Source: a virus (Duplodnaviria > Caudoviricetes). Taken from it: a stretch of DNA of 37,594 nucleotides. The stretch lies in the IMG/VR virus record IMGVR_UViG_3300031655_000017, positions 1 to 37,594 of that record; one strand, written 5' to 3'. Under the pieces are notes generated by a model, which made no database searches, was not told the origin of the DNA, and saw only the letters and a list, made by a program, of their open reading frames with translations. The position numbers were made by a program, and so were the translations under genes. Positions 9,757 through 29,871 of this stretch are shown in pieces; the first letter of the stretch is position 1; each line of letters begins with the position of its first letter.

Positions 9757-9839
9757 TTGAGTTTATAGGGGGTGTAGCCGTGGGTATGTTCGCAGCTTAC
9801 GTTTTGGTCTTAATGTTTCAGGCGTGGAGCGGGAAATGA
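9753..9839 (+). CDS. 28-aa single-transmembrane peptide
   Basis: MIEFIGGVAVGMFAAYVLVLMFQAWSGK; GAGGT SD; ATGA overlaps at both ends. Confidence 0.7.
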   Translation: MIEFIGGVAVGMFAAYVLVLMFQAWSGK

Positions 9840-10153
9840 AACCAGCTTTCATAAAAAATGACGGTGACAAGCTGCCGCTCGATCTGATCACACCTGAGAT
9901 GATCAACGCGCTCGGTGGCGCGCTCAAGTTTGGTGCGGATAAGTACGCGCCGCGCAACTGGGAGCAGGGGGCTGAGTGGGGTCGCTACTACGCAGCCCTA
10001 CAGCGTCACCTGTGGGCGTTCTGGAGCGGCAAGGAGGTCGACGAGGAGTCGGGCCTGCCGACGCTCCACCACGCCGCCTGCTGCCTTATGTTCTTAATTA
10101 CCTACGTCGAGCGCGGTATCGGTGAGGACAACCGGAAGCCTGGGAAGGGTTAA
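9836..10153 (+). CDS. dATP/dGTP diphosphohydrolase domain protein (DUF5664-like); start ATG 9836
   Basis: K.D..K..LDLI, FGADKYAPRNW..G, RYY.AL.RHL, DEESGL..L.HA.CC..FL. Confidence 0.85.
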   Translation: MKPAFIKNDGDKLPLDLITPEMINALGGALKFGADKYAPRNWEQGAEWGRYYAALQRHLWAFWSGKEVDEESGLPTLHHAACCLMFLITYVERGIGEDNRKPGKG

Positions 10154-12859: not shown

Positions 12860-13681
12860 CTATCGTTGCCCCGCAGCTAAAATGTTTAGCATGGGAGACA
12901 GGTGCCCCGAAAATCTCCGCCACGCTTCGGACGATCCCCTATACATAGGTCGCTTTACTTGACTAGCCGAGGCGCTGGCCACTGTTAATCCGTTCTTGTG
13001 GAAGTCCAGGCACCGAGAGCGCCAGGGGAGGCCGACATATTCAAGCATACGTCGGGTTTCACTCTCTTGGTTCTCTGTTAGAAATTCATAATCGATTTGA
13101 TATATAGGGAACCGCTCTGCCCAGAACCGCATAAGGTCTTTATGAAGGTTGTAAAAATGGGCGATGCTTTCCTGGTCAAAACTATACTCATGCCCGCGCT
13201 CAAAATTCGCCGTGTAGTTAGAAAAACAAGTCGCCCTTGCGTCCCTGTTCAGATAAATAATCTTTGCCTCTGGCATCGCGCTGAGAATAAACCCTATCCA
13301 CCTGAAGTTCAGCGGCATCTTGTCGAGAACGTACCTCTTTCCGTTGGACGGGAGTGCCTTGAGATAAGCGCACCTCAATTCTTTTAATTCACTTAGGCCA
13401 AAACCCTTTCCCATGTCGGAGATACAATCCCACAACAAAGTCAATTCCCCTGCGGTATGAACTTCGGGATGACTTGCTAGGATCTGCTCGACCAAAGTTG
13501 TACCTGATCGTGGCATACCTAAAACAAAAATAGGGGCAACATCCATCTCTTCGTCAACAACTGGGAAACCATCTTTGAAAGCGTGTTTTATCCGCCCAAA
13601 TGCAGCTTCGTCGTCGCCTATATCAAAGGGGAGGTGCGCCCTTCGATCCCTGTTCGCTGTTTCTATTTCAAGAATATTCAT
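12860..13681 (-). CDS. PAPS-dependent sulfotransferase (Sulfotransfer_3/TPST-like, no TPR domain)
   Basis: 5'-PSB PIFVLGMPRSGTTLVEQILASHP; DKMPLNF; 3'-PB RDARATCFSNY; ASASQVKRP.Y. Confidence 0.93.
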   Translation of the reverse strand: MNILEIETANRDRRAHLPFDIGDDEAAFGRIKHAFKDGFPVVDEEMDVAPIFVLGMPRSGTTLVEQILASHPEVHTAGELTLLWDCISDMGKGFGLSELKELRCAYLKALPSNGKRYVLDKMPLNFRWIGFILSAMPEAKIIYLNRDARATCFSNYTANFERGHEYSFDQESIAHFYNLHKDLMRFWAERFPIYQIDYEFLTENQESETRRMLEYVGLPWRSRCLDFHKNGLTVASASASQVKRPMYRGSSEAWRRFSGHLSPMLNILAAGQR

Positions 13682-14874
13682 AGCGACAACACCGAATTAA
13701 ATTCTTCGACGCCGAATACTTTTTCGCAAGCGTGACAGTCCCAACAACGGTTTTTACACTTAGACAAAACCTTGCTGAGACCCTGCCCCTTCTTTGTGTT
13801 CCAGATCGATGATATATCTTCGGCGCTGTGTTGCTGGGCCTGTGCTAAATTTGTCCAGCCTTGCGGTGCCCATCGATCCACTAAATATGGTGAAAGACTT
13901 TTCTCATATATCTCTTGAAATGAATCTGCATACTCAAAAGCGTCAAGTAATTTGCCACTTTCCAAGTCGATTTTTCTGTTTCCCTTTTCGATGCCGGACC
14001 AGCACATTCGGCCATCGGGATCGATCCCTTGTGATTGCCCCAACCGTCCGCTGAATTTAAAAACATCTACATTTTCAGAAAATTCATCGACAATTTCTTT
14101 GGTAGCCATCGAGATATTAACGCCCAGCCTGGGCAGTTGCTCGGTATATGGGGTTCGCCAGCGCACGCAGGTCGTCGGAAAAGTCTGCCAATAATTTGAT
14201 TCTGATTGCTGCAATGGTGCTTGCCACATATCATGCTCTTGCTTGAAAGGGCAGCTCGGCATACAGGACTCAGACGCTAATAGCGATGTTTCAACCTGTA
14301 GCTTTTTCGTCTCTTGGCGGATTTCTTTCAATAAATCGATATCTCTATTCAAAGAGCGATCCAATAATATTGTCGTGTACCCCAGAGCTGCGTAGTCGTA
14401 CACCTCTTGAGTAGATTTAACCAAATGATTGACGGTGTTTTTCCAATTCATATCTGGGAATGCTTCTTGCAAAGCCCCAGTCCTCATCAGATGAGTCGAG
14501 CTAATTGTGCAAACCCTCAGACCCCGCTCATAATATCCCCGTATAAATTCTAGCATCTCATTTATGACGTTCGCGTCAGACGCCAATTCCTTGCCCATAT
14601 CCAGGGTATTTAGGGTGAGAGAAATTTCTGTCCCGAACTCATCTTGGATTTTGAAGAGGTTATCTAATTGGGCTGGAGAAGGCATCACGCCCATTACGTC
14701 TCCATACTTTTTCTTCTCCCCCTCATACTCATAATGAAATTCCCCGCCGAAAAATATGTCGCGAATCTCGTCCTTGTATTCTTTGGCTGAGTTTTTAAAC
14801 AAGCGATAGAAAATGTCGTCGTCGGAATAGTTGTCCCAATGTGGTATCGAAAATTTTCGGGTAAAATCCGGCAC
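13678..14874 (-). CDS. U32-family Fe-S protein (putative hydroxylase)
   Basis: SLTLN, LDRSLNRD, LLASESCMPSCPFKQEH, DVFKFSGR; C-terminal CKNRCWDCHAC. Confidence 0.78.
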   Translation of the reverse strand: MPDFTRKFSIPHWDNYSDDDIFYRLFKNSAKEYKDEIRDIFFGGEFHYEYEGEKKKYGDVMGVMPSPAQLDNLFKIQDEFGTEISLTLNTLDMGKELASDANVINEMLEFIRGYYERGLRVCTISSTHLMRTGALQEAFPDMNWKNTVNHLVKSTQEVYDYAALGYTTILLDRSLNRDIDLLKEIRQETKKLQVETSLLASESCMPSCPFKQEHDMWQAPLQQSESNYWQTFPTTCVRWRTPYTEQLPRLGVNISMATKEIVDEFSENVDVFKFSGRLGQSQGIDPDGRMCWSGIEKGNRKIDLESGKLLDAFEYADSFQEIYEKSLSPYLVDRWAPQGWTNLAQAQQHSAEDISSIWNTKKGQGLSKVLSKCKNRCWDCHACEKVFGVEEFNSVLSL

Positions 14875-14876
14875 GA

Positions 14877-15257
14877 CTATTCTGAGGTAAGTATTCTGTC
14901 GCGATCACCAGGGTCAACAATATCCACGCGAGGAGTCTCAGCCTTCACCGCCGTTATGTGATCAACATACACTGTCGTCCCATCTCGCATGTCTCGATAA
15001 ATGGCATCGAGCTGATCGCCGATTGGACCGTAACCCAAGACTCTACTGTTAGCCATTGTGGCACGCTGCCCGCCGGGCGATGCCAACCAAGCGATTGCAG
15101 GATTGGTCACCGTGTTGTCATCTGGATTGTATTGCCACCCCTGCTTCACAGCATCGTTTTCGACAGAATGCCATGCCAGTGCCGAGTGTACTTCAAAGGT
15201 AGAGGCGGCTACCTGCTCCACTGTATTCGTTGCAACCGTTACTAAAATCTGAGGCAT
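14877..15257 (-). CDS. Tail fibre-associated/assembly protein
   Basis: V..GW.Y and Y..IGDQLDAIY.D...HITAVKAETP motifs typical of fibre-adjacent proteins. Confidence 0.6.
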   Translation of the reverse strand: MPQILVTVATNTVEQVAASTFEVHSALAWHSVENDAVKQGWQYNPDDNTVTNPAIAWLASPGGQRATMANSRVLGYGPIGDQLDAIYRDMRDGTTVYVDHITAVKAETPRVDIVDPGDRDRILTSE

Positions 15258-15266
15258 TATAAACTC

Positions 15267-16100
15267 CTATTCGTATTCCCAAACGATGACGACCCCGGTC
15301 GTCACGTTAGTACCTTGAGTGTAGCCGTTGTAAACGCCCATACCGCCAGCGCCATAAGCTACATGGCTGTGCAAGAAGGCGGTTGTAGTAGTCGCCGATC
15401 CCGGCGAACCTCCACCAAAATAGCTGCTACCCCCCGAAGCACTCATACTGGTTGTCGCCCTGGCTCCGCCGCCGCCGATGATATTTAAATCACCACCAGA
15501 ACCCACGCCCCCATAGCCACCATGATCAGCGCTGGACCCACTTTTGTTGCTGCCGCTGTGATAGCCACCAGTTGCTGAAAGGTGGGTGCCAAAGGAAGAT
15601 GTTGACCCGCTAGTTCCAGCCGGACCGACGGTTACAGTCACACTACTAATGGCAGATACATCAATAAACTTCTCAGAGTACCCACCAGCACCACCACCAA
15701 ATTGTGTGTTGTTTCCATGCGCCCCACTACCAACCAACTGGACTCGGACGCTACCGATATCGGTAGGTTTCGTCCAAGTCCCACTACTAGTAAAGACTTG
15801 GACTGATGCCAGCCCACCCCCGCCAGCAGCGGCTTGAAATGTAGGCGCAACACCAGCGCCGTTCGACGTTAGTACGTGAGTAGCTGTTCCAACAGCCACT
15901 GTCGTTGCAGATGCATCAGCGGCCCAGGTAATCAGCTCGCCATCGGTCCCTGCACGCAGAGCAGAGACAGGGACGCCGGCGGTTCCGCCGACTTTGAATC
16001 CTGTTTCGAGCGAAGGGACGCCGGTTCCAGCCCCCTGAATTGTCAGATCGCCGTCCGTCGTTTTCGATTCTATTACGTCAGTTTTTAATGTTGAAGTCAT
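15267..16100 (-). CDS. Glycine-rich tail fibre / receptor-binding protein; start revised to 16100
   Basis: VLTSNGAG..PTFQ, QVFTSSGTWTKP, GGGAGGY, G.VIVWEY; ATGA overlap with the upstream stop. Confidence 0.8.
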   Translation of the reverse strand: MTSTLKTDVIESKTTDGDLTIQGAGTGVPSLETGFKVGGTAGVPVSALRAGTDGELITWAADASATTVAVGTATHVLTSNGAGVAPTFQAAAGGGGLASVQVFTSSGTWTKPTDIGSVRVQLVGSGAHGNNTQFGGGAGGYSEKFIDVSAISSVTVTVGPAGTSGSTSSFGTHLSATGGYHSGSNKSGSSADHGGYGGVGSGGDLNIIGGGGARATTSMSASGGSSYFGGGSPGSATTTTAFLHSHVAYGAGGMGVYNGYTQGTNVTTGVVIVWEYE

Positions 16101-16558
16101 TGTACCGGCTCCTCTGGCCACGTTGGATTTGCGGGATCAGCAGTTTTCGCTGGTAGGTCGCGGAGTGCTTGGCGGTGACTAGTCCAAGCGGTTTTTGTGT
16201 CCGCTGCCATAGCATCCCAGCGGTCAGGGAGAACCATTATGTCACTCGCCTGCAACCGATTATTTCTCTCGATGCGCAGCAATTCCATATCGTCATTATG
16301 CTTATCTCTGTCAAAGGCGACTTGATCGAAACTGATTGTCTTATTAGCTACATCCACGGGCCAGTGGTGCGTAATTTGAAAACACATCTCCCCGTTAACC
16401 GCCGTCGCAGCATTATCGACTACAAAAGCGTCTTCATATCCAGGCATCTGATGTAACTCTACAATCCTCGCGTCTGCCGCGTCACGGGTCTCAAACACAT
16501 CACATTTACAAATGAAACCATTTTCATCGACTTTATTAACTGTTGTAAAACCTGTCAT
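16097..16558 (-). CDS. Tail fibre assembly chaperone
   Basis: LRIERNNRLQASD...W..HRQALRDLP...DP.N.TWP. Confidence 0.85.
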   Translation of the reverse strand: MTGFTTVNKVDENGFICKCDVFETRDAADARIVELHQMPGYEDAFVVDNAATAVNGEMCFQITHHWPVDVANKTISFDQVAFDRDKHNDDMELLRIERNNRLQASDIMVLPDRWDAMAADTKTAWTSHRQALRDLPAKTADPANPTWPEEPVQ

Positions 16559-16570
16559 TAGTATAGTCCC

Positions 16571-17350
16571 TTATGTATGTTTGAGTCCCCATACTGTAAA
16601 ACGTCCTGTGACGATGTTGCCTGTTTCCATTAATATTTGAACTCTGTCTACGGTGATAACTCCGTTTCGTGCGCCGTGCCAATGACCACCAGTGAAATCA
16701 GCGCTGGTGGCATCCAACACAGACGACCCGTGCGCGTAAAACATACCGACGCCATCCATCCCCCCGGCGAAATACCCATTCACTACAGCATGATCGCCGG
16801 TGGTTGTATTAATCGAAAGGGCCATGTGAATGTGCGCCCGAGCCGCGTGAGTCTGGGCACCATAGGATGTACTTGCGTCAGTTACTTTACTACAGTGGTA
16901 GCCGTAATCCGAAGCGCCGGAATCGAAACCTGAACTATCACCACATCTTAGCACCACGGGCGCACCGGCAGACGACACCGTTAAGTTTGTACAGGAAAAC
17001 GCATATACGTCATAGGTCGTGTCGATCCCTGTTATGTCCAGAGATGCGCTGGTTGAGGCGGTTTGTGATCCAATTAGTGTCCAAGCACCGCCGCTAGGAA
17101 TTGCCGCCGCCGCACTTGTCCATGCCGATCCATTCGAGGTCAGGACGTTACCAGATGTGCCGGGAGTTGCTGCAAAGGTCAGGTTGGCGCTGCCGTCTGT
17201 GGTAGCAATCTGTCCCGCCGCTCCATCTACGTCAGGCACCAGAAGCGCGGCATCGCCCAGCGCAACCTTGCCGGTGCCCTTGCCCTGGAGCTGGAGTGCC
17301 GTATTTGTACCCGTGGTGGCAATGATGGCATCAGCTTCAACTCTACTCAT
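16571..17350 (-). CDS. Tail fibre / receptor-binding protein
   Basis: GQIATTDGSANLTF, GNVLTSNGSAWTS, WTLI..TAS.SAS, G.FTVWG. Confidence 0.75.
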   Translation of the reverse strand: MSRVEADAIIATTGTNTALQLQGKGTGKVALGDAALLVPDVDGAAGQIATTDGSANLTFAATPGTSGNVLTSNGSAWTSAAAAIPSGGAWTLIGSQTASTSASLDITGIDTTYDVYAFSCTNLTVSSAGAPVVLRCGDSSGFDSGASDYGYHCSKVTDASTSYGAQTHAARAHIHMALSINTTTGDHAVVNGYFAGGMDGVGMFYAHGSSVLDATSADFTGGHWHGARNGVITVDRVQILMETGNIVTGRFTVWGLKHT

Positions 17351-17363
17351 AATTTTCTATTCC

Positions 17364-19175
17364 TCATATGATCGTCACGTTACCGGCCACGGTAAGCGTG
17401 ACCCCGCTGGCTATGGTTAACGGGCCAGTAGCACTCGCATTTTCTGCGGCTAAAATTTCTGTCGAAGTGTTTAATTCAGCTTCATTGATGCGGAAAATGT
17501 CACCAGCACTTGATCCAACTGTTCCGTTGTCGCCCTTAAAATATCCAGCACCGCCTCCTATTGATCCCCAGGCGGGGCTTGCACCGGAGTAGCCCTCAAA
17601 CTCATTGGTGGTGCTGTTGTACCTAAACATCCCCACGGCGGCGGAGCCGTCGCGTTGTGCAGTTGTGCCTGTTGGTACATTCGCACTACCGGTCGCGCTT
17701 GTGCGCGGCGTGAGGCCAGTGCCGGAAAGAGCAATCGTACCGCTGGTTGTGATCGGTGAGCCAGATAGAATGCTCACGCCATCAGCACCAGTGACAGCCA
17801 CAGATGTCACCTGTGAGGTGGCAACCGTATCCGCCCAACTCGATCCGTTATAAAATCGCAGCACGTTGGATGTCGTGTTGTAGTGTAAATCGCCCTCATC
17901 GAGGCTACTTACGGGATCACTCGATGCTACTCGATAGCGCTCGGCAAACGAGTTAACGCCAGCGATGTTGGTTGCTACGGTCGCCATCGCGGTCACATTT
18001 GCGCCGGTGCCGAGCACGTTCATATCGGTCACGACATCGGCGGTGCCGAGCACGTTCATATCAGTTACGACATCTGCCGTGGCCAGGGTGTTCATGTCCG
18101 TTACGATATCGGCGGTGCCGAGGGTGTTCATATCAGTGATGACGCCGGATACGCCGAGCAAACCCATCGCGGTTACATTTGCACTTGTGCCCAGAAGGTC
18201 CATGTCTGTGACAATAGCGGCAGTACCAAGAGTGTTCATGTCCGCTACAACATCGGAGGTAGCTAGGACGTTCATATCAGTTACGACATCAGCCGTACCT
18301 AAAATATTCATGTCGTTCACGACATCGGCGGTGCCCAGGATGCTCATGTCCGTAAGGACGGCGGCCGCAGAAAGCGCGCTCATGGCAGTTACATTTGCAC
18401 TGGTTCCTAACAGCCCCATGGCCGTTACGTTTGCGCTTGTGCCCAGCAAATCCATGTCGGTCACGATTGCAGACGTGCCAAGCGTGTTCATGTCAGCGAC
18501 GGCGTCCGACGTGCCTAGCCTACCAATTTCGGTCGCCTTGGCAGCAACCGCGCCAATGTCAGTTGCGTCGGCAGCGACCGCCGTCACATCTGAAGATATA
18601 CCAGCGACGGTGGTGACGTTAGCAGAAATACCGGCAACGGTGGATATATCACCTGGAATTGTACCGAGAGTAGCAAGGCCAGATGTAGCAATGGTTGTTT
18701 CAGGGTTGCCGGCAGAGTCGAACGCCAACACCTTAGAGGCCCGTGTTATTTTCGCGGGAATCACGGCAATGTCAACGGTATCGCCGTCTGGCTGGCGCAG
18801 ACTGCGATCAACCTGTGAATTGGTTTGTTGCGCCAACATGGTCAGGATATCGAACTGTTTCTCGACCAACTCGGATGGCATATTATCGTTCTCGACAAGG
18901 TCAAGTCCTTGCGTGAACTGCTCTACGCGAGAGATCAGCAGTGTCTGACCGGACGCAGGCGCTGAACTCATCGTGACAGTGCCACCAGCAGCCACACCCG
19001 CGCCCACTATAGTATAATGGGTCGTGATGGTCTGCACCGTCTCCACGCCGGTGCTGTCCACTGTCAGCGTAACCACGAGATCAGCGTTATCAAAGAACAA
19101 ATAAGGAAAGCTGAACGCCGTGGCAGAGCCGTCACCGGCAGTGCTGACTCGTGTGGTAGTCGTACTAAAAGTCAT
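17364..19175 (-). CDS. Tail fibre with T7 gp17-like N-terminal adaptor and repeat shaft
   Basis: GDGS.TAF.FP..F...ADL.V, E..FD.LTML.QQ, 12-aa repeats, PTGTTAQR...G.FRYN. Confidence 0.9.
   Translation of the reverse strand: MTFSTTTTRVSTAGDGSATAFSFPYLFFDNADLVVTLTVDSTGVETVQTITTHYTIVGAGVAAGGTVTMSSAPASGQTLLISRVEQFTQGLDLVENDNMPSELVEKQFDILTMLAQQTNSQVDRSLRQPDGDTVDIAVIPAKITRASKVLAFDSAGNPETTIATSGLATLGTIPGDISTVAGISANVTTVAGISSDVTAVAADATDIGAVAAKATEIGRLGTSDAVADMNTLGTSAIVTDMDLLGTSANVTAMGLLGTSANVTAMSALSAAAVLTDMSILGTADVVNDMNILGTADVVTDMNVLATSDVVADMNTLGTAAIVTDMDLLGTSANVTAMGLLGVSGVITDMNTLGTADIVTDMNTLATADVVTDMNVLGTADVVTDMNVLGTGANVTAMATVATNIAGVNSFAERYRVASSDPVSSLDEGDLHYNTTSNVLRFYNGSSWADTVATSQVTSVAVTGADGVSILSGSPITTSGTIALSGTGLTPRTSATGSANVPTGTTAQRDGSAAVGMFRYNSTTNEFEGYSGASPAWGSIGGGAGYFKGDNGTVGSSAGDIFRINEAELNTSTEILAAENASATGPLTIASGVTLTVAGNVTII
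17973..18512 (-). repeat. 15 x 36-nt coding tandem repeat (12-aa unit, e.g. TADVVTDMNVLG)
   Basis: Units counted from the translation and mapped to the DNA. Confidence 0.9.
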
Positions 19176-23523: not shown

Positions 23524-26487
23524 CTACGCTTTGACTACGCCGGCAGTACTCTGCTGCCATTTAGGTAGTTTGAAGGAGAGCACCACACTACCGTCAGCGC
23601 GGGAGTATATAATCTTACCGTTAGGTAGCTGCTCAACTTGGGCAATCTTAGGCACCCCCGCGTCAGCGGCTGCGCGATTATACGCGCGCATACGCCGAGC
23701 CGCGTGGCCTTTAGATGCGTACCTCGTCTTACCCACCGTCACAACGGCGGTATCCAAAGTCTGCTTGAGGGCTTCTGCGAGTTTACCTTCTCGCACGGCG
23801 GTACGAATACCATCCATAGCCAATACCCCTGCCACCCCTGTGTTGTAGGTTAACTGAAGGATAGATGCTTGAACCGATTCCGGCAGCCCCGCGTACCCTG
23901 TCATATGTGTACTAAGTTTTTTATGGTCGTTGTTGACGACTAGCTCACGCGCCTTTTTATCGCTCATGGTATTGGGATCAACACCGGCCTGCTTCGCAAC
24001 CTCAACTTTGCGGGCCTTCGTCAGACCCCCCTCCAGAGTAGGAATACCATCGGTGGAGCCTGTGCCCTCATCCGCGAGAAGGTTGCTCAACACCATCGTC
24101 ACCGCGCCGCTAGGCTTCGCCGCATCATCCGTGCCATATACATTGGGGTCTAGCGGCAGTGGCCCGTTCAGATTCATCCCCTTCTCTACCTCACGAGCAC
24201 GGTCTTGATGCATACCCATTCTCTGTGGGTTACCTGGTTCCCGGATGTAGTAACTACCTGTGGCGTCTTGGAACAATTGCGTGCCAGGGGGTGAACCTGG
24301 GAAAAGCAAATCGTCAGGTATGACGTTCTTCGGATTTATGCCGTATTCCCCTTGGATAGGTTCAGGGTTGTCAGCTAGATTTGTAACCGTTACGGACCCC
24401 GCCACTGGCTCTGTGGATTGAAGACTGGACGCATTGCTCTCTGGTGTCAGCGACCTTCCGTGTGGTGAAAGTGTTGGCGGCTTGTCCAGTTCCATAGACT
24501 GAAGTATCGCAGCAGCGGCCTCTTGAGGTAGGCCAGACGCGCCACCAGCAGGTGTGCGATAGTAGTAGTTACCGTGAGAGTCCTGATACATCTTCGTACC
24601 AGAGGGCATACCCGGCAGCAGCGCGTCTTCAGGAATGACGTTGCCACCCTTACCACCGGATACCGACAAGGGGTCAGGGTCGTCTCCCAAGGGGGATACC
24701 GTGGCGGACCCTGCCTCTGGCTCTGTGGATTGAAGACTGGACGCATTGCTCTCTGGTGTTGATTGTGTAGATTCATCTGGGGTTTTACCGGTAGGCTGCA
24801 CCAGATAGTAACCGTCTTTATCGACAAACGCATCTACTTCATCGTTGACGCCGATTGCTTTAAACACTTCAACATGCTGACCCGGTATTGGGCGATTAAA
24901 CTCGTCCAGTATGTTGTACCAGAAGACATCCTTACCAGTGGCGTCCTTCTTGTGTAGCACTCGCTCGAAGGGTAAGGTTTTGACGGTTGGCTTCAATCTC
25001 TGAGCGCCACTACCGGTCGCCATCAGTATCTGACCGCTGGCGGTCATAATCCCATCGGGCATGTCATCAAAGTGACTGAAGGCAGGGTTCTGCGTGCGCA
25101 GCGCGTTATCTATCGCCGCGACTACCAGTTTATTCCCGGCCGCTTCTTTGACCGACCGGTCGGCGTCGGGTATCTTGTCAAACTCTTCGTGCAGTTCTAT
25201 ATACTCACGGAATACGCGTGACCGTTTACCTGCGTCCCAACCCTCATCGTCCGCCTTCTCGTTAATCGCTTGGGCGCCACGGTCGAACACGCTGATATTC
25301 CACATCCGCCCATATTTATTTTTAACATCGCTCGTTGCGCCGGCCTTATCCATTAGCATCTGCGCTGCCTCTTCAGTCCGACGCATGTAGTATTTAGCGG
25401 AGGTGGACGAGATGTAACCTTCAGCCACAAGACCACCCAAATTATTCTGGAAGCGTAGTATCTCCTCCAAGCTGGCAGAGGTTGTCATTTTGCCTTTCTT
25501 GCGTTTCATAGACATCGCGTTGTAATCGGAGAGAATGTTTGACTCGCTATCCGCTATCTCTGCTTCGGTTCGGTCTGGAATAACCCGGTCCCGCACTATC
25601 TGAAATAAGTGTTTGTACAGTTCATCTGATATCTTGGAGCGCAACCCTTCTAAGCCTTCGAGCGTAGTGATCTCACCACTCACCACAGCATCTAACGCTT
25701 GTGGATGATACGCAGCAAACTCGAATAGCTGTTTATTGAGCGCTTCCGTTTCCATACCATTGAGTCTTTTGAAGAGATCGTCCTCGAACTTCGTCATCTC
25801 GTCGTCTGTCAAAACACCCTCAAGCTCACCGGCAGCGAGAGCGCGCGAACCCTCCAGCGGGTTTTCTAACAAGCCATTCGCCAGGTTGGCGCGCCAAATA
25901 GGCAACTGCTCCAACATGAGCGCTTCCTTACCCGGATCACTGAGATTAGACACGTCGAGTATTCGACGGAAGTCAGCCTCGGCCGACACCATGTCACGTT
26001 GCCCCGCGTGCAACTCACTACCTATACCGAGAGCGATAGCGCGCATGTTGCCGAGATCAGCCTTGACGATCTCTGCCGCCTGGAAGTCACTGACGGTTTT
26101 TAGAGTGCTGTACCGGAACGTGTCAGCGGTGGCCGCGATAGCTTGCCTCTGAATATCGGTCATATTTTCAGTGAACGTGCCAAAGGCTTCGTCGAAAGCC
26201 ACGACCTGCTCATCAAAGACGTAAGGAGCGCCGGTACCTGCGTTGCGCATAGCCTCACCAGCGTCGCGATTTCGTTCTAACTTGAAATCCGACAGTTGCG
26301 CGTGCGCAGAGACCACGTCACGCTTGTCTTGTCGTACCTTGTGCTTCGCCACAGCGTCACTGAGCAGCGCGCCGCTGGTCTGTATAGCCGCGCCTATCTG
26401 ACCGCCGAAGTCAGCCGCTGACGCTTGAGGGATGTTGACGGGACCACCGACCTGGACGGGTGCATCATATGAGGTGAATTTACTCAT
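23524..26487 (-). CDS. Internal virion protein (gp15-like) with C-terminal lysozyme-like domain
   Basis: Synteny; LLADEG..DGIPT and LP..VQASILQLTYNTG motifs. Confidence 0.75.
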   Translation of the reverse strand: MSKFTSYDAPVQVGGPVNIPQASAADFGGQIGAAIQTSGALLSDAVAKHKVRQDKRDVVSAHAQLSDFKLERNRDAGEAMRNAGTGAPYVFDEQVVAFDEAFGTFTENMTDIQRQAIAATADTFRYSTLKTVSDFQAAEIVKADLGNMRAIALGIGSELHAGQRDMVSAEADFRRILDVSNLSDPGKEALMLEQLPIWRANLANGLLENPLEGSRALAAGELEGVLTDDEMTKFEDDLFKRLNGMETEALNKQLFEFAAYHPQALDAVVSGEITTLEGLEGLRSKISDELYKHLFQIVRDRVIPDRTEAEIADSESNILSDYNAMSMKRKKGKMTTSASLEEILRFQNNLGGLVAEGYISSTSAKYYMRRTEEAAQMLMDKAGATSDVKNKYGRMWNISVFDRGAQAINEKADDEGWDAGKRSRVFREYIELHEEFDKIPDADRSVKEAAGNKLVVAAIDNALRTQNPAFSHFDDMPDGIMTASGQILMATGSGAQRLKPTVKTLPFERVLHKKDATGKDVFWYNILDEFNRPIPGQHVEVFKAIGVNDEVDAFVDKDGYYLVQPTGKTPDESTQSTPESNASSLQSTEPEAGSATVSPLGDDPDPLSVSGGKGGNVIPEDALLPGMPSGTKMYQDSHGNYYYRTPAGGASGLPQEAAAAILQSMELDKPPTLSPHGRSLTPESNASSLQSTEPVAGSVTVTNLADNPEPIQGEYGINPKNVIPDDLLFPGSPPGTQLFQDATGSYYIREPGNPQRMGMHQDRAREVEKGMNLNGPLPLDPNVYGTDDAAKPSGAVTMVLSNLLADEGTGSTDGIPTLEGGLTKARKVEVAKQAGVDPNTMSDKKARELVVNNDHKKLSTHMTGYAGLPESVQASILQLTYNTGVAGVLAMDGIRTAVREGKLAEALKQTLDTAVVTVGKTRYASKGHAARRMRAYNRAAADAGVPKIAQVEQLPNGKIIYSRADGSVVLSFKLPKWQQSTAGVVKA
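24405..24759. repeat. 43-bp exact direct repeat (24405-24447 and 24717-24759), 312-bp period
   Basis: CTGGCTCTGTGGATTGAAGACTGGACGCATTGCTCTCTGGTGT occurs twice. Confidence 0.93.
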
Positions 26488-26927: not shown

Positions 26928-27349
26928 GAAATCCTCGCATATAGCGCGCAGGCATGGCCGTCAGGCGCGTAGGCTTCCATCCGCTCCGCTTCCATCTTGA
27001 AACCAAGCATTCGCGCCCAGCGGTGTGCTGCCGGCACATGGCAGTCAACTGTCAACTCTACGCGCCGCTCGGGCAGGCTTGAGAGGAATTTTTGCACGGC
27101 GCGGTGTATTTTTAAGAAGTTGCGGGGGCCAGTGTCCGAGAGGAACGACCACACCATAGCGCGGTTCTCCCACATCGGGATAGCACCGCCAGCACCCAGC
27201 ACGGTGTCATCGTCCATAGCAGTATAGCTGGGGTGCTGCGCCAACGAAGCGGCCTGCTCGACCGTCACCCAATCGTTGAGGTACGCCTGCGAGCTTTGCA
27301 GTTTTATCTGAGCCAGGTGCGCCGCTTGAAAGGGTAGAATATGAAACAT
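26915..27349 (-). CDS. GNAT-like protein (gp13 position)
   Basis: RRVELTVDC...A.RWARMLGF..E, Y.PDG....LYAR. Confidence 0.7.
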   Translation of the reverse strand: MFHILPFQAAHLAQIKLQSSQAYLNDWVTVEQAASLAQHPSYTAMDDDTVLGAGGAIPMWENRAMVWSFLSDTGPRNFLKIHRAVQKFLSSLPERRVELTVDCHVPAAHRWARMLGFKMEAERMEAYAPDGHACALYARISCQV

Positions 27350-29871
27350 TACCCGTCCTGTGTGTGCAAGTGAGGCATTACTGCCGAAATGGTAACCGGC
27401 AGAGGTTGGGTCTGCCGGTAGAAAACATGGTTGTCGCTACTGTACTCACCGTCCCAGTCGAACTCTACGTCCCCGCTAAAAAACGCTACTGCGGCATCCA
27501 TAGAATCACCGCCTGCCCGAAACACTATATCGTCTAGATTATCCGCATCAGGGCCAACGGAACCGCCCAGTGTCTCGTGAAAGCGCATGATGACTTGCTG
27601 GAACCTGTTAACCTTACCCTGCGCCGTACCTGTGGCCGAGCCAGCTTCAGTGCGTAGTGTTTGGAAATCAGAGGTAAAACCCAAACCAACATGCGCCTTG
27701 GAGGTAGGGTAGTTTAAAGTAACGGCGCCCGACGCCACCGTCTTATTAGGATGGACGGCGCCTTCAGTCAGGATGGAAACACTCTGTCCTTCAAGATGCG
27801 ACAACCCCGACAGCGTGGACACCCGCGCGCGCACCTTACCGTCGGAGACGTAGGCGGTAAAGTTGTCCGTGTCAGATGTGTCAATAGCATGATGGATGTC
27901 ACCAGCAGAGGTATATGTCGAATAGCCTGTGCCATTTATACCAGATAACTCAAAAGTATTGGCGGTCTTGTTGGCTACAGTAAAGCCTTTACCGTTGAGT
28001 TGGGTCATGCCGACGACGTTTCGGATCATAATCTCATCCGTATTAGACAAGCCATGCGCGACGGCGGTAATCACAACCGGGTTTGCACTTGTTGCACCGG
28101 ATATCTGCACGGCCTGTTTTGTATTACTGAACAGCTCAAAAGTGTTGGTGGCACTCTGCCCTATCCTATATGGCACCTTGTTGGCCTCTGTCATACCGAC
28201 GATGTCGGTCATGCGTATCTCAGCGCCATCGGCAATAGAATGTGAAGCAGCGGTCACGACAGCAGGGTCGGCCGCAGTGATGCCGGTGATAGTGACAGGG
28301 TTGTTGAGTGAAAGCCCGCTGTCTATGTAGAAAGCGTCTTCGGGATCGTAGGTTTCATCCCAAAACGGTTTGATGTGCTCTATGTAGCGCACTGTGCCGC
28401 CGTTAATGTAGCGGTTCACAACGAGGTAAACCTCATCAGCGTCACCGGCGGGATTGGGGATGACAGCAACACTCTCGACTTTAGCTTGGGTGGTGCCGGC
28501 ATCGCTGACGCCCCCGACAACATGCCGGCTCCACCCCACGACCTTTTGGTCGCGCTCATAGGTCAGAGCAATCAACGTACCGTCACCCAGAACGCACCAT
28601 AGCACGCTCTGCGGTTCTCGTTGATAGGCCATCTGCACGATGCCGGTGCGGGAGATGTGCTCCGCAACCAGCGTCAGATCAGGCGCTCTGAATCCATCAT
28701 CCTCGAATATAAAGGCTAATTCTCGAATTTTCCGTAACGCCTTTTGAACAAACAATATTACCTTGCCGGCTCGCTTCGGTTCAACAGCGCCGCTACCGTA
28801 GCCGGTAGAGCGCGCGCTCTTGACGTTAGAGGGTGTCAACAACGTGCTGGTGTCAGAGGGTCGTGAGACCCACTCAGCTTCGAAAGTGCCCAGCAATAAC
28901 CCTTTCTCGTCACTCATCATCCATCGGATGGGATCGACCGTGTCACCCGACAAGGAATCGGTCACAGCGCTATCGTCCAAAACAGTCCCGTCAGTGTCGG
29001 TCGGCGCCATGTTCTCGAAGTCACCGCTGACAGACAAGTCGTAGCGTAGTGGAAAGTCAGTTGTGCCAGCAAAACCTAGCCGGTTCTGATGAAACCCCAC
29101 CACCGAAGGGTAACCAGTGGTCGCTGAGTACAACCCCAACCGCCAGTGTATTGTCGCCGTCGTAGCTGATGCGTCGGGGCCGTCGATTGCGGCGGTCACG
29201 CTGGTCGTGTTGGCGCGTGCCGTAATAGTGAGATATGTCCAGTTACCGGCTGCGTCCTTCCAACGGATCAGCCGCCCGATGTCTGAAGCCTGAAAACCAG
29301 TGCCGCCATTAATACCGGTTACCGCCGACGCTGTAACCGTCACAGAACCGGTAGTACCAGACAAACCCAACGTAGTCGTTGTGCTGTTAGTGACCAGATA
29401 TGGCCCATCTATGAACGTCACATTCGTAATCGACCACGCCGTGTCGGAGGTGCGGCTCATCTTGCGCGGCGGGTAGGATTTATGTGTGATGTATAACAGG
29501 TCGGCGCTTTGCGCGAAGCGGAGATTAAACAGATCAGCAGTCAGATATGTAGTCGTCAATTCAATCGGTGAGCCGGTGTCAATCTGCGCCCGGTCTTTGA
29601 TGAAGCGGGCATACAGGTTACCAAACTCAATAATATAAGCCTGCGAGGACGAGAACACGAACTCCTTGATCAGGGTGGACAGGCTATTTGTCTTGACACC
29701 AATAATATGTTTCGTGCCAGGTCGACGCTCAATTGGCCCCTGTACTAGCGGGACCATGTTTAAACAGGTTTGCAGGCCCGTCTTGTAGCGGTCTACATCA
29801 GGACGGCCGTACAACAGAGGCGATATTTCACCTCCGTTAAAATTATTTTGAATAGGGTCAGCGCGGGGCAT
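27349..29871 (-). CDS. Tail tubular protein B (nozzle) with FCCH-like insertions
   Basis: Q.NF.GGEISP.L.GR.D, YPS.V.F.QNRL.F, V.GW.RH. Confidence 0.9.
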   Translation of the reverse strand: MPRADPIQNNFNGGEISPLLYGRPDVDRYKTGLQTCLNMVPLVQGPIERRPGTKHIIGVKTNSLSTLIKEFVFSSSQAYIIEFGNLYARFIKDRAQIDTGSPIELTTTYLTADLFNLRFAQSADLLYITHKSYPPRKMSRTSDTAWSITNVTFIDGPYLVTNSTTTTLGLSGTTGSVTVTASAVTGINGGTGFQASDIGRLIRWKDAAGNWTYLTITARANTTSVTAAIDGPDASATTATIHWRLGLYSATTGYPSVVGFHQNRLGFAGTTDFPLRYDLSVSGDFENMAPTDTDGTVLDDSAVTDSLSGDTVDPIRWMMSDEKGLLLGTFEAEWVSRPSDTSTLLTPSNVKSARSTGYGSGAVEPKRAGKVILFVQKALRKIRELAFIFEDDGFRAPDLTLVAEHISRTGIVQMAYQREPQSVLWCVLGDGTLIALTYERDQKVVGWSRHVVGGVSDAGTTQAKVESVAVIPNPAGDADEVYLVVNRYINGGTVRYIEHIKPFWDETYDPEDAFYIDSGLSLNNPVTITGITAADPAVVTAASHSIADGAEIRMTDIVGMTEANKVPYRIGQSATNTFELFSNTKQAVQISGATSANPVVITAVAHGLSNTDEIMIRNVVGMTQLNGKGFTVANKTANTFELSGINGTGYSTYTSAGDIHHAIDTSDTDNFTAYVSDGKVRARVSTLSGLSHLEGQSVSILTEGAVHPNKTVASGAVTLNYPTSKAHVGLGFTSDFQTLRTEAGSATGTAQGKVNRFQQVIMRFHETLGGSVGPDADNLDDIVFRAGGDSMDAAVAFFSGDVEFDWDGEYSSDNHVFYRQTQPLPVTISAVMPHLHTQDG

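Follow-up and report, generated by a model that had tools for sequence, protein, structure and literature searches.

We describe a movable phage module, composed of a glycine-rich tail-fiber tip, a likely chaperone, and a U32-fold protein, as found in a viral DNA stretch of 37,594 nucleotides (nt) (positions 1 to 37,594 of IMG/VR record IMGVR_UViG_3300031655_000017; this whole stretch is called the window), where a sulfotransferase gene follows the U32 gene. The analysis shows the gene order, the fold of the U32 protein, and its conserved ligand residues, and it shows that the sulfotransferase has been gained and lost among related loci. The best explanation, which we hold at a little short of an even chance, is that the U32 protein hydroxylates the fiber tip and that sulfation is optional.

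Under this explanation, the U32 protein would act on the tip during fiber assembly as an iron-sulfur (Fe-S) hydroxylase, with C204, C208, C236, and perhaps H214 as putative cluster ligands, a possible second metal site in four C-terminal cysteines, and host prephenate as the probable oxygen donor, as for UbiU/V. Its target would most plausibly be Tyr267, with ring hydroxylation giving a 3,4-dihydroxyphenylalanine (DOPA)-like residue, or Asn265, both in an invariant Asn-Gly-Tyr (NGY) loop. The sulfotransferase, if present, would use host 3'-phosphoadenosine 5'-phosphosulfate (PAPS) to sulfate the new hydroxyl or an unmodified tyrosine. The chemistry of the receptor-binding tip would thereby be changed. 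In related modules, flavin halogenases and 2-oxoglutarate (2OG) oxygenases occupy the same slot. If this is true, phages alter the chemistry of the tips with which they bind receptors, a point that matters for host range and for what viral halogenases act on in nature. U32 activity would also become simple to assay, in a cassette of three genes whose candidate substrate is a soluble protein and whose candidate residue is named.

A conserved module of fiber tip, likely chaperone, and predicted modifying enzyme

The cassette in the window comprises the following genes, in the order of reading (aa, amino acids; pLDDT, predicted local distance difference test).

15267..16121, minus strand: 284-aa tail-fiber tip protein with a C-terminal glycine-rich adhesin domain (approximately residues 99-284); phrog_863, E 4e-31; N265-G266-Y267 is the candidate modification site
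14877..15257, minus strand: 126-aa protein whose position and analogy to Pam3 gp25 make it the likely assembly chaperone for the glycine-rich tip; phrog_1787, E 2e-14
13678..14874, minus strand: U32-fold protein, 398 aa, GTG start, predicted Fe-S enzyme; phrog_1458, phrog_36869; model pLDDT 92.6
12860..13681, minus strand: stand-alone sulfotransferase domain, 273 aa, optional in the cassette; PF13469, 129.9 bits (cut-off 27)

The first-pass annotation, made from the sequence alone, had placed the last two open reading frames correctly, and its details of their junctions are confirmed: the two overlap by ATGA, and the U32 gene starts 2 nt past the stop of the 126-aa gene, with no Shine-Dalgarno-like run in the 25 nt upstream.

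The structure model of the tip domain (pLDDT 89.5) has the TNF-like fold with glycine-rich loops of a Pam3-type adhesin. Its best fold match is the fiber of cyanophage Pam3 (7ypx; Z 18.1, root mean square deviation [rmsd] 3.2, 177 residues aligned; Foldseek E 5e-6), in which, according to the available text of PMC9608196, receptor binding is proposed to take place at the distal loops and the next gene encodes a chaperone. The likeness to Pam3 gp24/gp25 thus covers both the tip-domain fold and the fiber-then-chaperone gene pair; the difference is that the same text speaks neither of a modification nor of an enzyme that would make one. The 126-aa protein has no match among solved structures and no sequence match to Pam3 gp25, and a tblastn search of cultured phages with the glycine-rich domain returned nothing, probably an effect of the low-complexity filter.

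To survey neighborhoods, 179 U32 genes of at least 370 aa in the fetched loci were dereplicated at 98%, giving 104 rows, 24 of which are cut by contig ends; a neighbor is a gene within 3 genes of U32. A gene of the chaperone family neighbors U32 in 48/104 rows, and a glycine-rich fiber gene plus a protein of 125 to 175 aa lies upstream of U32 in 56 of the first 116 loci. The fiber-chaperone-U32 linkage recurs in three or more distinct regions of the U32 tree and in both podovirus-like and T4-like contexts, although the deep branching of this tree is unsure because FastTree gave long-branch warnings. A reciprocal test started from the chaperone alignment and covered the best 80 of 239 loci, not dereplicated. 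The full-length protein is present in 57 of these 80, with a glycine-rich fiber within 3 genes in 56/56 assessable loci and a modifying enzyme nearby in 55/56 (45 with a halogenase, 23 with U32, and 2 with a sulfotransferase), whereas none of the 17 assessable loci that hold only the generic C-terminal part of the chaperone has a modifying enzyme. The coupling to tail-fiber genes that had been proposed for this pair is therefore strong and repeated. The loci suggest that the slot behind the chaperone is taken by U32, halogenases, 2OG oxygenases, or a sulfotransferase. In another clade, U32 follows a PF21722 glycine-rich protein and a 121-aa phrog_7759 protein (L134:1716-2980 and L137), an arrangement that falls outside the profile counts.

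A divergent branch of the U32 fold

The 398-aa protein carries ESCMPSCPFKQEH from residue 202, DVFKFSGR from residue 270, and C373-x3-C377-x2-C380-x2-C383, all as first annotated. Across 102 homologues the invariant columns are E202, C204, C208, H214, C236, C373, C377, C380, and C383, so that the motifs hold seven invariant cysteines and one invariant histidine; E-x-C-x3-C-x5-H and C-x3-C-x2-C-x2-C occur in 102/102. The gene is under purifying selection, with 70 synonymous and 15 nonsynonymous codon changes against L002 and 96 and 20 against L122 (398 codons).

A structure model built from the 102 homologues places the protein in the U32-type TIM-barrel fold. Both structure searches give Mk0906 (5d88), a U32 protein from Methanopyrus kandleri, as the top match (Foldseek E 4e-8; Z 15.7, with 226 residues superposed at rmsd 3.5, against Z 11.4 for the next barrel), even though identity is 12% and the phage protein is longer (398 aa against 247 modeled) and adds the C-terminal four-cysteine element. 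Sequence searches tell less. The 398-aa protein has no match to Pfam PF01136, and only 1 of the 102 homologues has one, at E 0.038; single-protein searches against Pfam, NCBIfam, and PDB sequences returned nothing, and the family profile against PDB sequences returned only zinc-finger noise. Distant relatives reached by the family profile do pass PF01136, with 6 of the 66 scanned above 22.4 bits (P0346 at 48.1, P0375 at 38.1, and P0369 at 37.7). When broadened, the profile scores RlhA at 37.5, TrhP at 31.4, and UbiU at 11.0 bits among four Escherichia coli proteins and gives no score for UbiV; the narrow profile is weak by itself (hhalign probability 33.6, 12.8, and 0.3). In the alignment with RlhA and TrhP, the positions that coincide with their U32 core are C204, C236, and the FK.SGR strand.

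Because the fold and the intermediate profiles link it to U32 while the canonical cysteine spacing is found in none of the homologues, the 398-aa protein is a divergent U32-fold branch. The U32 hallmarks claimed for it hold at the level of fold, intermediate sequences, and RlhA/TrhP profile scores, but not as a Pfam match or as the canonical cysteine motif. It has in common with RlhA, TrhP, UbiU, and UbiV of E. coli, proteins of O2-independent, prephenate-linked hydroxylation, the U32 core and the conserved cysteines after the same strand (available text of PMC5727448, PMC10990095, and bioRxiv 10.1101/587956) and differs from them in its E-x-C-x3-C-x5-H...C and C-x3-C-x2-C-x2-C motifs, the missing PF01136 match, and its tail-gene context. 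Fe-S binding and hydroxylase activity are predicted by analogy to these four proteins, which the available text of PMC10990095 ties to prephenate-dependent ring hydroxylation.

An improbable alternative is that the U32-fold protein is not a hydroxylase and that its cysteine and histidine sites serve metal loading, cross-linking, or halogen-linked redox chemistry at the fiber tip. The noncanonical motif and the two candidate metal sites are in keeping with this, as are the neighbors, which include phage halogenases (32/104 rows) and, in Dehalococcoidia, reductive dehalogenases (5 rows). However, the alignment with the RlhA/TrhP core argues otherwise, and a methyltransferase fusion and the repeated pairing with a sulfotransferase point to a new hydroxyl. 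The fusion is found in cyanophage members (L170 to L172), P-SSM4 (PSSM4_035, L170:6971-8536) and Syn33 among them, where the U32-fold domain bears a methyltransferase-like C-terminal extension. Similar fusions, as in P0278 and P0296, occur in distant U32 relatives and pass PF13578 (P0278, 36.4 bits), and they fit the creation of a hydroxyl followed by its capping. The cyanophage members belong to phrog_1458, and their upstream gene, phrog_1409, is also the upstream neighbor in Ralstonia phage RP12. No fusion of 945 to 2695 aa was found among 5439 candidates, which is weak evidence, and no sulfotransferase is fused to a U32 homologue in the 66 scanned of 150 listed representatives.

Tip-loop motifs as candidate targets

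Sixty-four dereplicated tip domains were compared, with motifs counted by alignment. Asn-Gly-Tyr near the C terminus is present in 10/10 halogenase-free U32 modules, in 2/30 modules with both U32 and a halogenase, and in 0/22 halogenase-only modules, two of these being truncated at the site. In the 54 other domains the residues N265, G266, and Y267 have frequencies of 0.06, 0.15, and 0.02, and, one glycine excepted, they are the invariant positions that are rarest there. Modules keep the motif whether they have the sulfotransferase or not, but it is missing from the second glycine-rich paralogues of L008, L016, and L018. Analogy with Pam3 and the lower confidence of the model at this point indicate that it probably sits at a loop tip.

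A tyrosine in loop 2 shows the opposite distribution, being found in 50/52 halogenase modules and in 0/10 halogenase-free U32 modules, in which the loop is shortened; it is also present in 2/2 cyanophage loci without a nearby halogenase. Since the loop-2 tyrosine tracks the halogenases, tip motifs co-vary with enzyme content. This tyrosine (L181-L248 and other halogenase loci) is a candidate site for viral halogenases. A further motif, GHxN, was considered as the U32 target and not adopted, as it occurs in 28/30 modules with U32 and a halogenase but in only 1/10 of the window's group.

These patterns allow a more specific proposal, somewhat unlikely as a whole, in which the module is an interchangeable toolkit for the tip. 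The U32 protein would be a protein-directed, O2-independent hydroxylase that converts the NGY tyrosine to a DOPA-like residue by way of prephenate; the sulfotransferase, or the fused methyltransferase of cyanophages, could cap the product; and halogenases would act on the separate tyrosine loop.

Alternative substrates

Several points weigh against hydroxylation of the fiber tip. The canonical cysteine motif C-x6-C-x15/16-C-x3/4-C occurs in 0/102 homologues, though UbiU, UbiV, and RlhA themselves depart from this spacing (available text of PMC5727448 and bioRxiv 10.1101/587956). According to the available text of PMC10990095, the substrates that genetics and labeling link to U32 proteins are RNA bases (rRNA and tRNA) and quinone precursors bound to lipid; direct hydroxylation by U32 proteins "has not been demonstrated." No chaperone gene is nearby in 56/104 rows, a count to be read with the 24 rows that are cut short. 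Some U32 homologues adjoin DNA polymerase, RegA/clamp-loader, PTPS, or MT-A70 genes and bacterial copies adjoin reductive dehalogenases, and the U32-fold family has probably come to serve more than one function. The reciprocal linkage was favored because the profile came from U32-adjacent proteins and the best 80 of 239 hits were used, and gene neighborhood cannot tell fiber modification from modification of a host receptor. The NGY motif may reflect ancestry, inherited with the cassette, or may bind the receptor or the chaperone, a serious caveat because the 10 modules share one U32 clade. Nor does a single target motif account for all members, because modules with U32 and a halogenase mostly lack NGY.

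We consider it unlikely that the U32 protein instead acts on a base in DNA or RNA or on some small aromatic metabolite, in the manner of RlhA, TrhP, or UbiU/V, with the fiber slot serving as a tolerant, late-expressed cargo site. Such a role would match the substrates known for U32 proteins and the homologues beside DNA replication and modification genes or in cellular anaerobes, and genes of an unrelated kind do enter the slot after U32, one being the trypsin-like protease gene of the L002 group. It accounts less well for the recurrence of the fiber-chaperone-U32 order across separate U32 clades and phage types and for the co-variation of tip motifs with enzyme content, and none of the 32 window proteins scanned (Pfam and PHROG) matches a DNA-modification or prephenate-supply family. 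Were it correct, the finding would still be an unannotated U32 branch (phrog_1458 and phrog_36869) present in cultured cyanophages.

It is also possible, though doubtful, that the enzymes modify a host receptor (lipopolysaccharide, capsule, or outer membrane protein) and so block superinfection or readsorption, traveling with the fiber since both follow the same receptor. Fiber linkage fits this equally; the sulfotransferase derives from the large bacterial tetratricopeptide repeat (TPR)-sulfotransferase family, and glycosyltransferase-9 and carbamoyltransferase genes neighbor homologues L106, L108, and L111. Yet the U32 chemistry described in the available text of PMC10990095 concerns aromatic rings rather than sugars, and a U32 protein that is 96% identical where the tip domain is 65% identical would better fit recognition of a short conserved motif than action on a receptor that changes.

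In Dehalococcoidia (L094, L096, L099, L100, and L105, approximately 40% identical) a reductive dehalogenase lies within 3 genes in 5/9 rows of the clade; other genes close to these homologues encode a B12 radical SAM-PqqD protein, a DAHP synthase, and an O-methyltransferase. Two tandem, N-terminally extended homologues adjoin sapC in one member of the Arcobacteraceae (L112:95-3387), and in another (L110) the homologue adjoins a circularly permuted ATP-grasp peptide-ligase cluster. A T4-like phage carries two tandem U32 paralogues by RegA and clamp-loader genes (L069:4385-7034).

The sulfotransferase as a likely optional addition

Returning to hydroxylation of the tip as the preferred explanation, the sulfotransferase is likely an optional add-on and not a required second step. 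The 273-aa protein has a 5'-PSB loop, MPRSGTT, at residue 56, and its nearest solved relatives are the tyrosylprotein sulfotransferases (TPSTs), at E 6e-8 to 6e-7, namely, the tick enzyme (8w5z) and human TPST1 and TPST2. R58, E79, and K121 align with R74, E95, and K154 of the tick enzyme, which by spacing match Arg78, Glu99, and Lys158 of TPST2, residues with catalytic roles (available text of PMC10951654). The catalytic Arg, Glu, and Lys are thus present, whereas overall similarity is weak and bacterial TPR-sulfotransferases are nearer relatives, the protein being 52% identical to the C-terminal domain of one of them (P0232). As the TPST catalytic residues are kept, the enzyme may sulfate an unmodified tyrosine without a hydroxylase having acted first.

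A sulfotransferase of this type neighbors U32 in only 7/104 rows, as called by a profile and motif scan that may have missed more distant types. All seven fall in the window's 18-row clade, in which eight rows are without it and three are too short, so the co-occurrence expected from the first-pass annotation recurs in the clade (7/15 assessable rows) and does not extend to the family; the two genes are not inherited as a pair. The closest U32 relatives (96%, 95%, 89%, 87%, and 76% identical) lack the sulfotransferase, which is why we regard it as likely optional. In L122, where U32 and the downstream DNA are each 95% identical to those of the window, approximately 47 nt stand in its place, and PF13469 was found in 0/5 records searched, including complete genomes G001 and G002 (U32 96% and 76% identical). 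Conversely, the window sulfotransferase is 95% identical to a copy that adjoins a U32 only 56% identical, which indicates independent movement. Copies are diverse, 33 to 60% identical between most lineages, and one lies upstream of U32. In L025:9346-10005 and L150:6346-7005, which carry the copy 95% identical to that of the window, the 5' end of the gene is different and looks broken, an in-frame stop lying a short way before the PAPS loop; one contig of run X12 shows this form too. Contigs from four runs gave a single weak joint spanning most of the sulfotransferase gene (24 letters, depth 2.7), which was set aside. Two further, unrelated sulfotransferase types lie near U32 in L142 and L040, and in the 96%-identical group a trypsin-like protease (PF13365; L002:6922-7770) fills the slot after U32.

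The strict form of the first-pass annotation, an obligate hydroxylate-then-sulfate pathway kept for low-oxygen water, is therefore very improbable. The translational coupling of the two genes speaks for it, as does the recurrence of divergent sulfotransferase copies next to U32 in the clade, once upstream, and never together with a halogenase (0/104 rows). Such a pathway is difficult to square with absence of the sulfotransferase from 8/15 assessable clade rows, the closest relatives among them, with its precise absence from L122, with the lack of a PF13469 match in two complete genomes, or with the broken copies. TPST-type catalytic residues that permit action on plain tyrosine also count against it, as does the company U32 keeps with O2-using enzymes and in cyanophages.

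Oxygen

Flavin halogenases neighbor U32 in 32/104 rows and 2OG-Fe(II) oxygenase-like genes in 25/104; both kinds of enzyme use O2. Among cultured phages, 126 records hold distant homologues (23 to 29% identity), and 123 of these are from phages of cyanobacteria, hosts that produce oxygen; homologues are also found in anaerobes. The suggestion that the system suits low-oxygen water is unsupported because of this association with O2-using enzymes and the presence of homologues in cyanophages. One neighbor annotated as DNA endonuclease V (L170:8533-9042, phrog_274) scores 38 bits on a 2OG-oxygenase-like profile and may be misnamed. The sequencing runs that match the cassette are labeled marine or seawater metagenome, with no RNA run among those listed.

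Relation to predicted modification systems

The U32 variant is a version of a hydroxylate-then-sulfate logic predicted in 2010 for O2-dependent enzymes. According to the available text of Iyer et al. 2010 (PMC2938197), there are operons predicted to hydroxylate and then sulfate co-encoded collagen-like or tail-collar proteins, and phage clusters of modifying enzymes, including the dioxygenase/tryptophan-halogenase array of Syn9. Those systems differ in that the enzymes are O2-dependent 2OG/JmjC enzymes, that their activities are predictions, and that secondary metabolites were the assignment given to the Syn9 array; the main text as available nowhere contains "U32." In two reviews (available text of PMC2984593 and PMC10452541), the function of cyanophage halogenases is given as unknown or metabolic. 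The window has no Syn9-type array, with no PF04820 in the 96%-complete record and no 2OG family in the 32 proteins scanned, but Syn9-type halogenases and 2OG enzymes do occur in modules related to that of the window. In the literature searched we found no published account of a U32-based hydroxylate-then-sulfate fiber system, so the novelty first claimed stands for the U32 version, whereas the underlying idea had been predicted.

Genomic setting of the cassette

The window is a near-complete record (96%) of a marine phage with T7-like structural genes. Pfam and PHROG scans place terminase, portal, capsid, tail tube, and fibers on the minus strand and also identify a family-A DNA polymerase. 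The U32 and sulfotransferase genes are the final two of the fiber block, which also holds three further genes.

17364..19175, minus strand: 603-aa tail fiber with T7-type N-terminal domain and repeats; PF03906, E 2e-5, and PF20854, E 8e-9, both below cut-off; tail PHROGs
16571..17350, minus strand: 259-aa fiber-type protein whose N-terminal part is common with the 284-aa tip protein (BLAST cluster f2); phrog_14820
16097..16558, minus strand: tail-fiber assembly chaperone of the upstream fiber; PF16778, 57.2 bits

The cassette had been described as AT-richer than the core, and this is true of overall composition, with a guanine-plus-cytosine (GC) content of 0.446 for the U32 gene and 0.482 for the sulfotransferase gene against 0.541 for the window (0.383 for the line at 14281). 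It is not specific. Third-position GC is 0.49 for U32 and 0.52 for the sulfotransferase, 0.46 to 0.51 for the four fiber and chaperone genes directly upstream, and 0.52 for the capsid gene, against 0.67 to 0.70 for portal and terminase. Because third-position GC is that of the upstream fiber and chaperone genes, low GC does not set the two-gene cassette apart, and with the capsid gene matching as well we rejected it as a sign of separate import of the two genes.

Elsewhere in the window, a gene with a dATP/dGTP diphosphohydrolase domain follows the polymerase (9824-10153, plus strand), a 987-aa protein has an endolysin-like match at its C terminus (23524-26487, minus strand), and a tail protein contains E1_FCCH repeats (27349-29871, minus strand).

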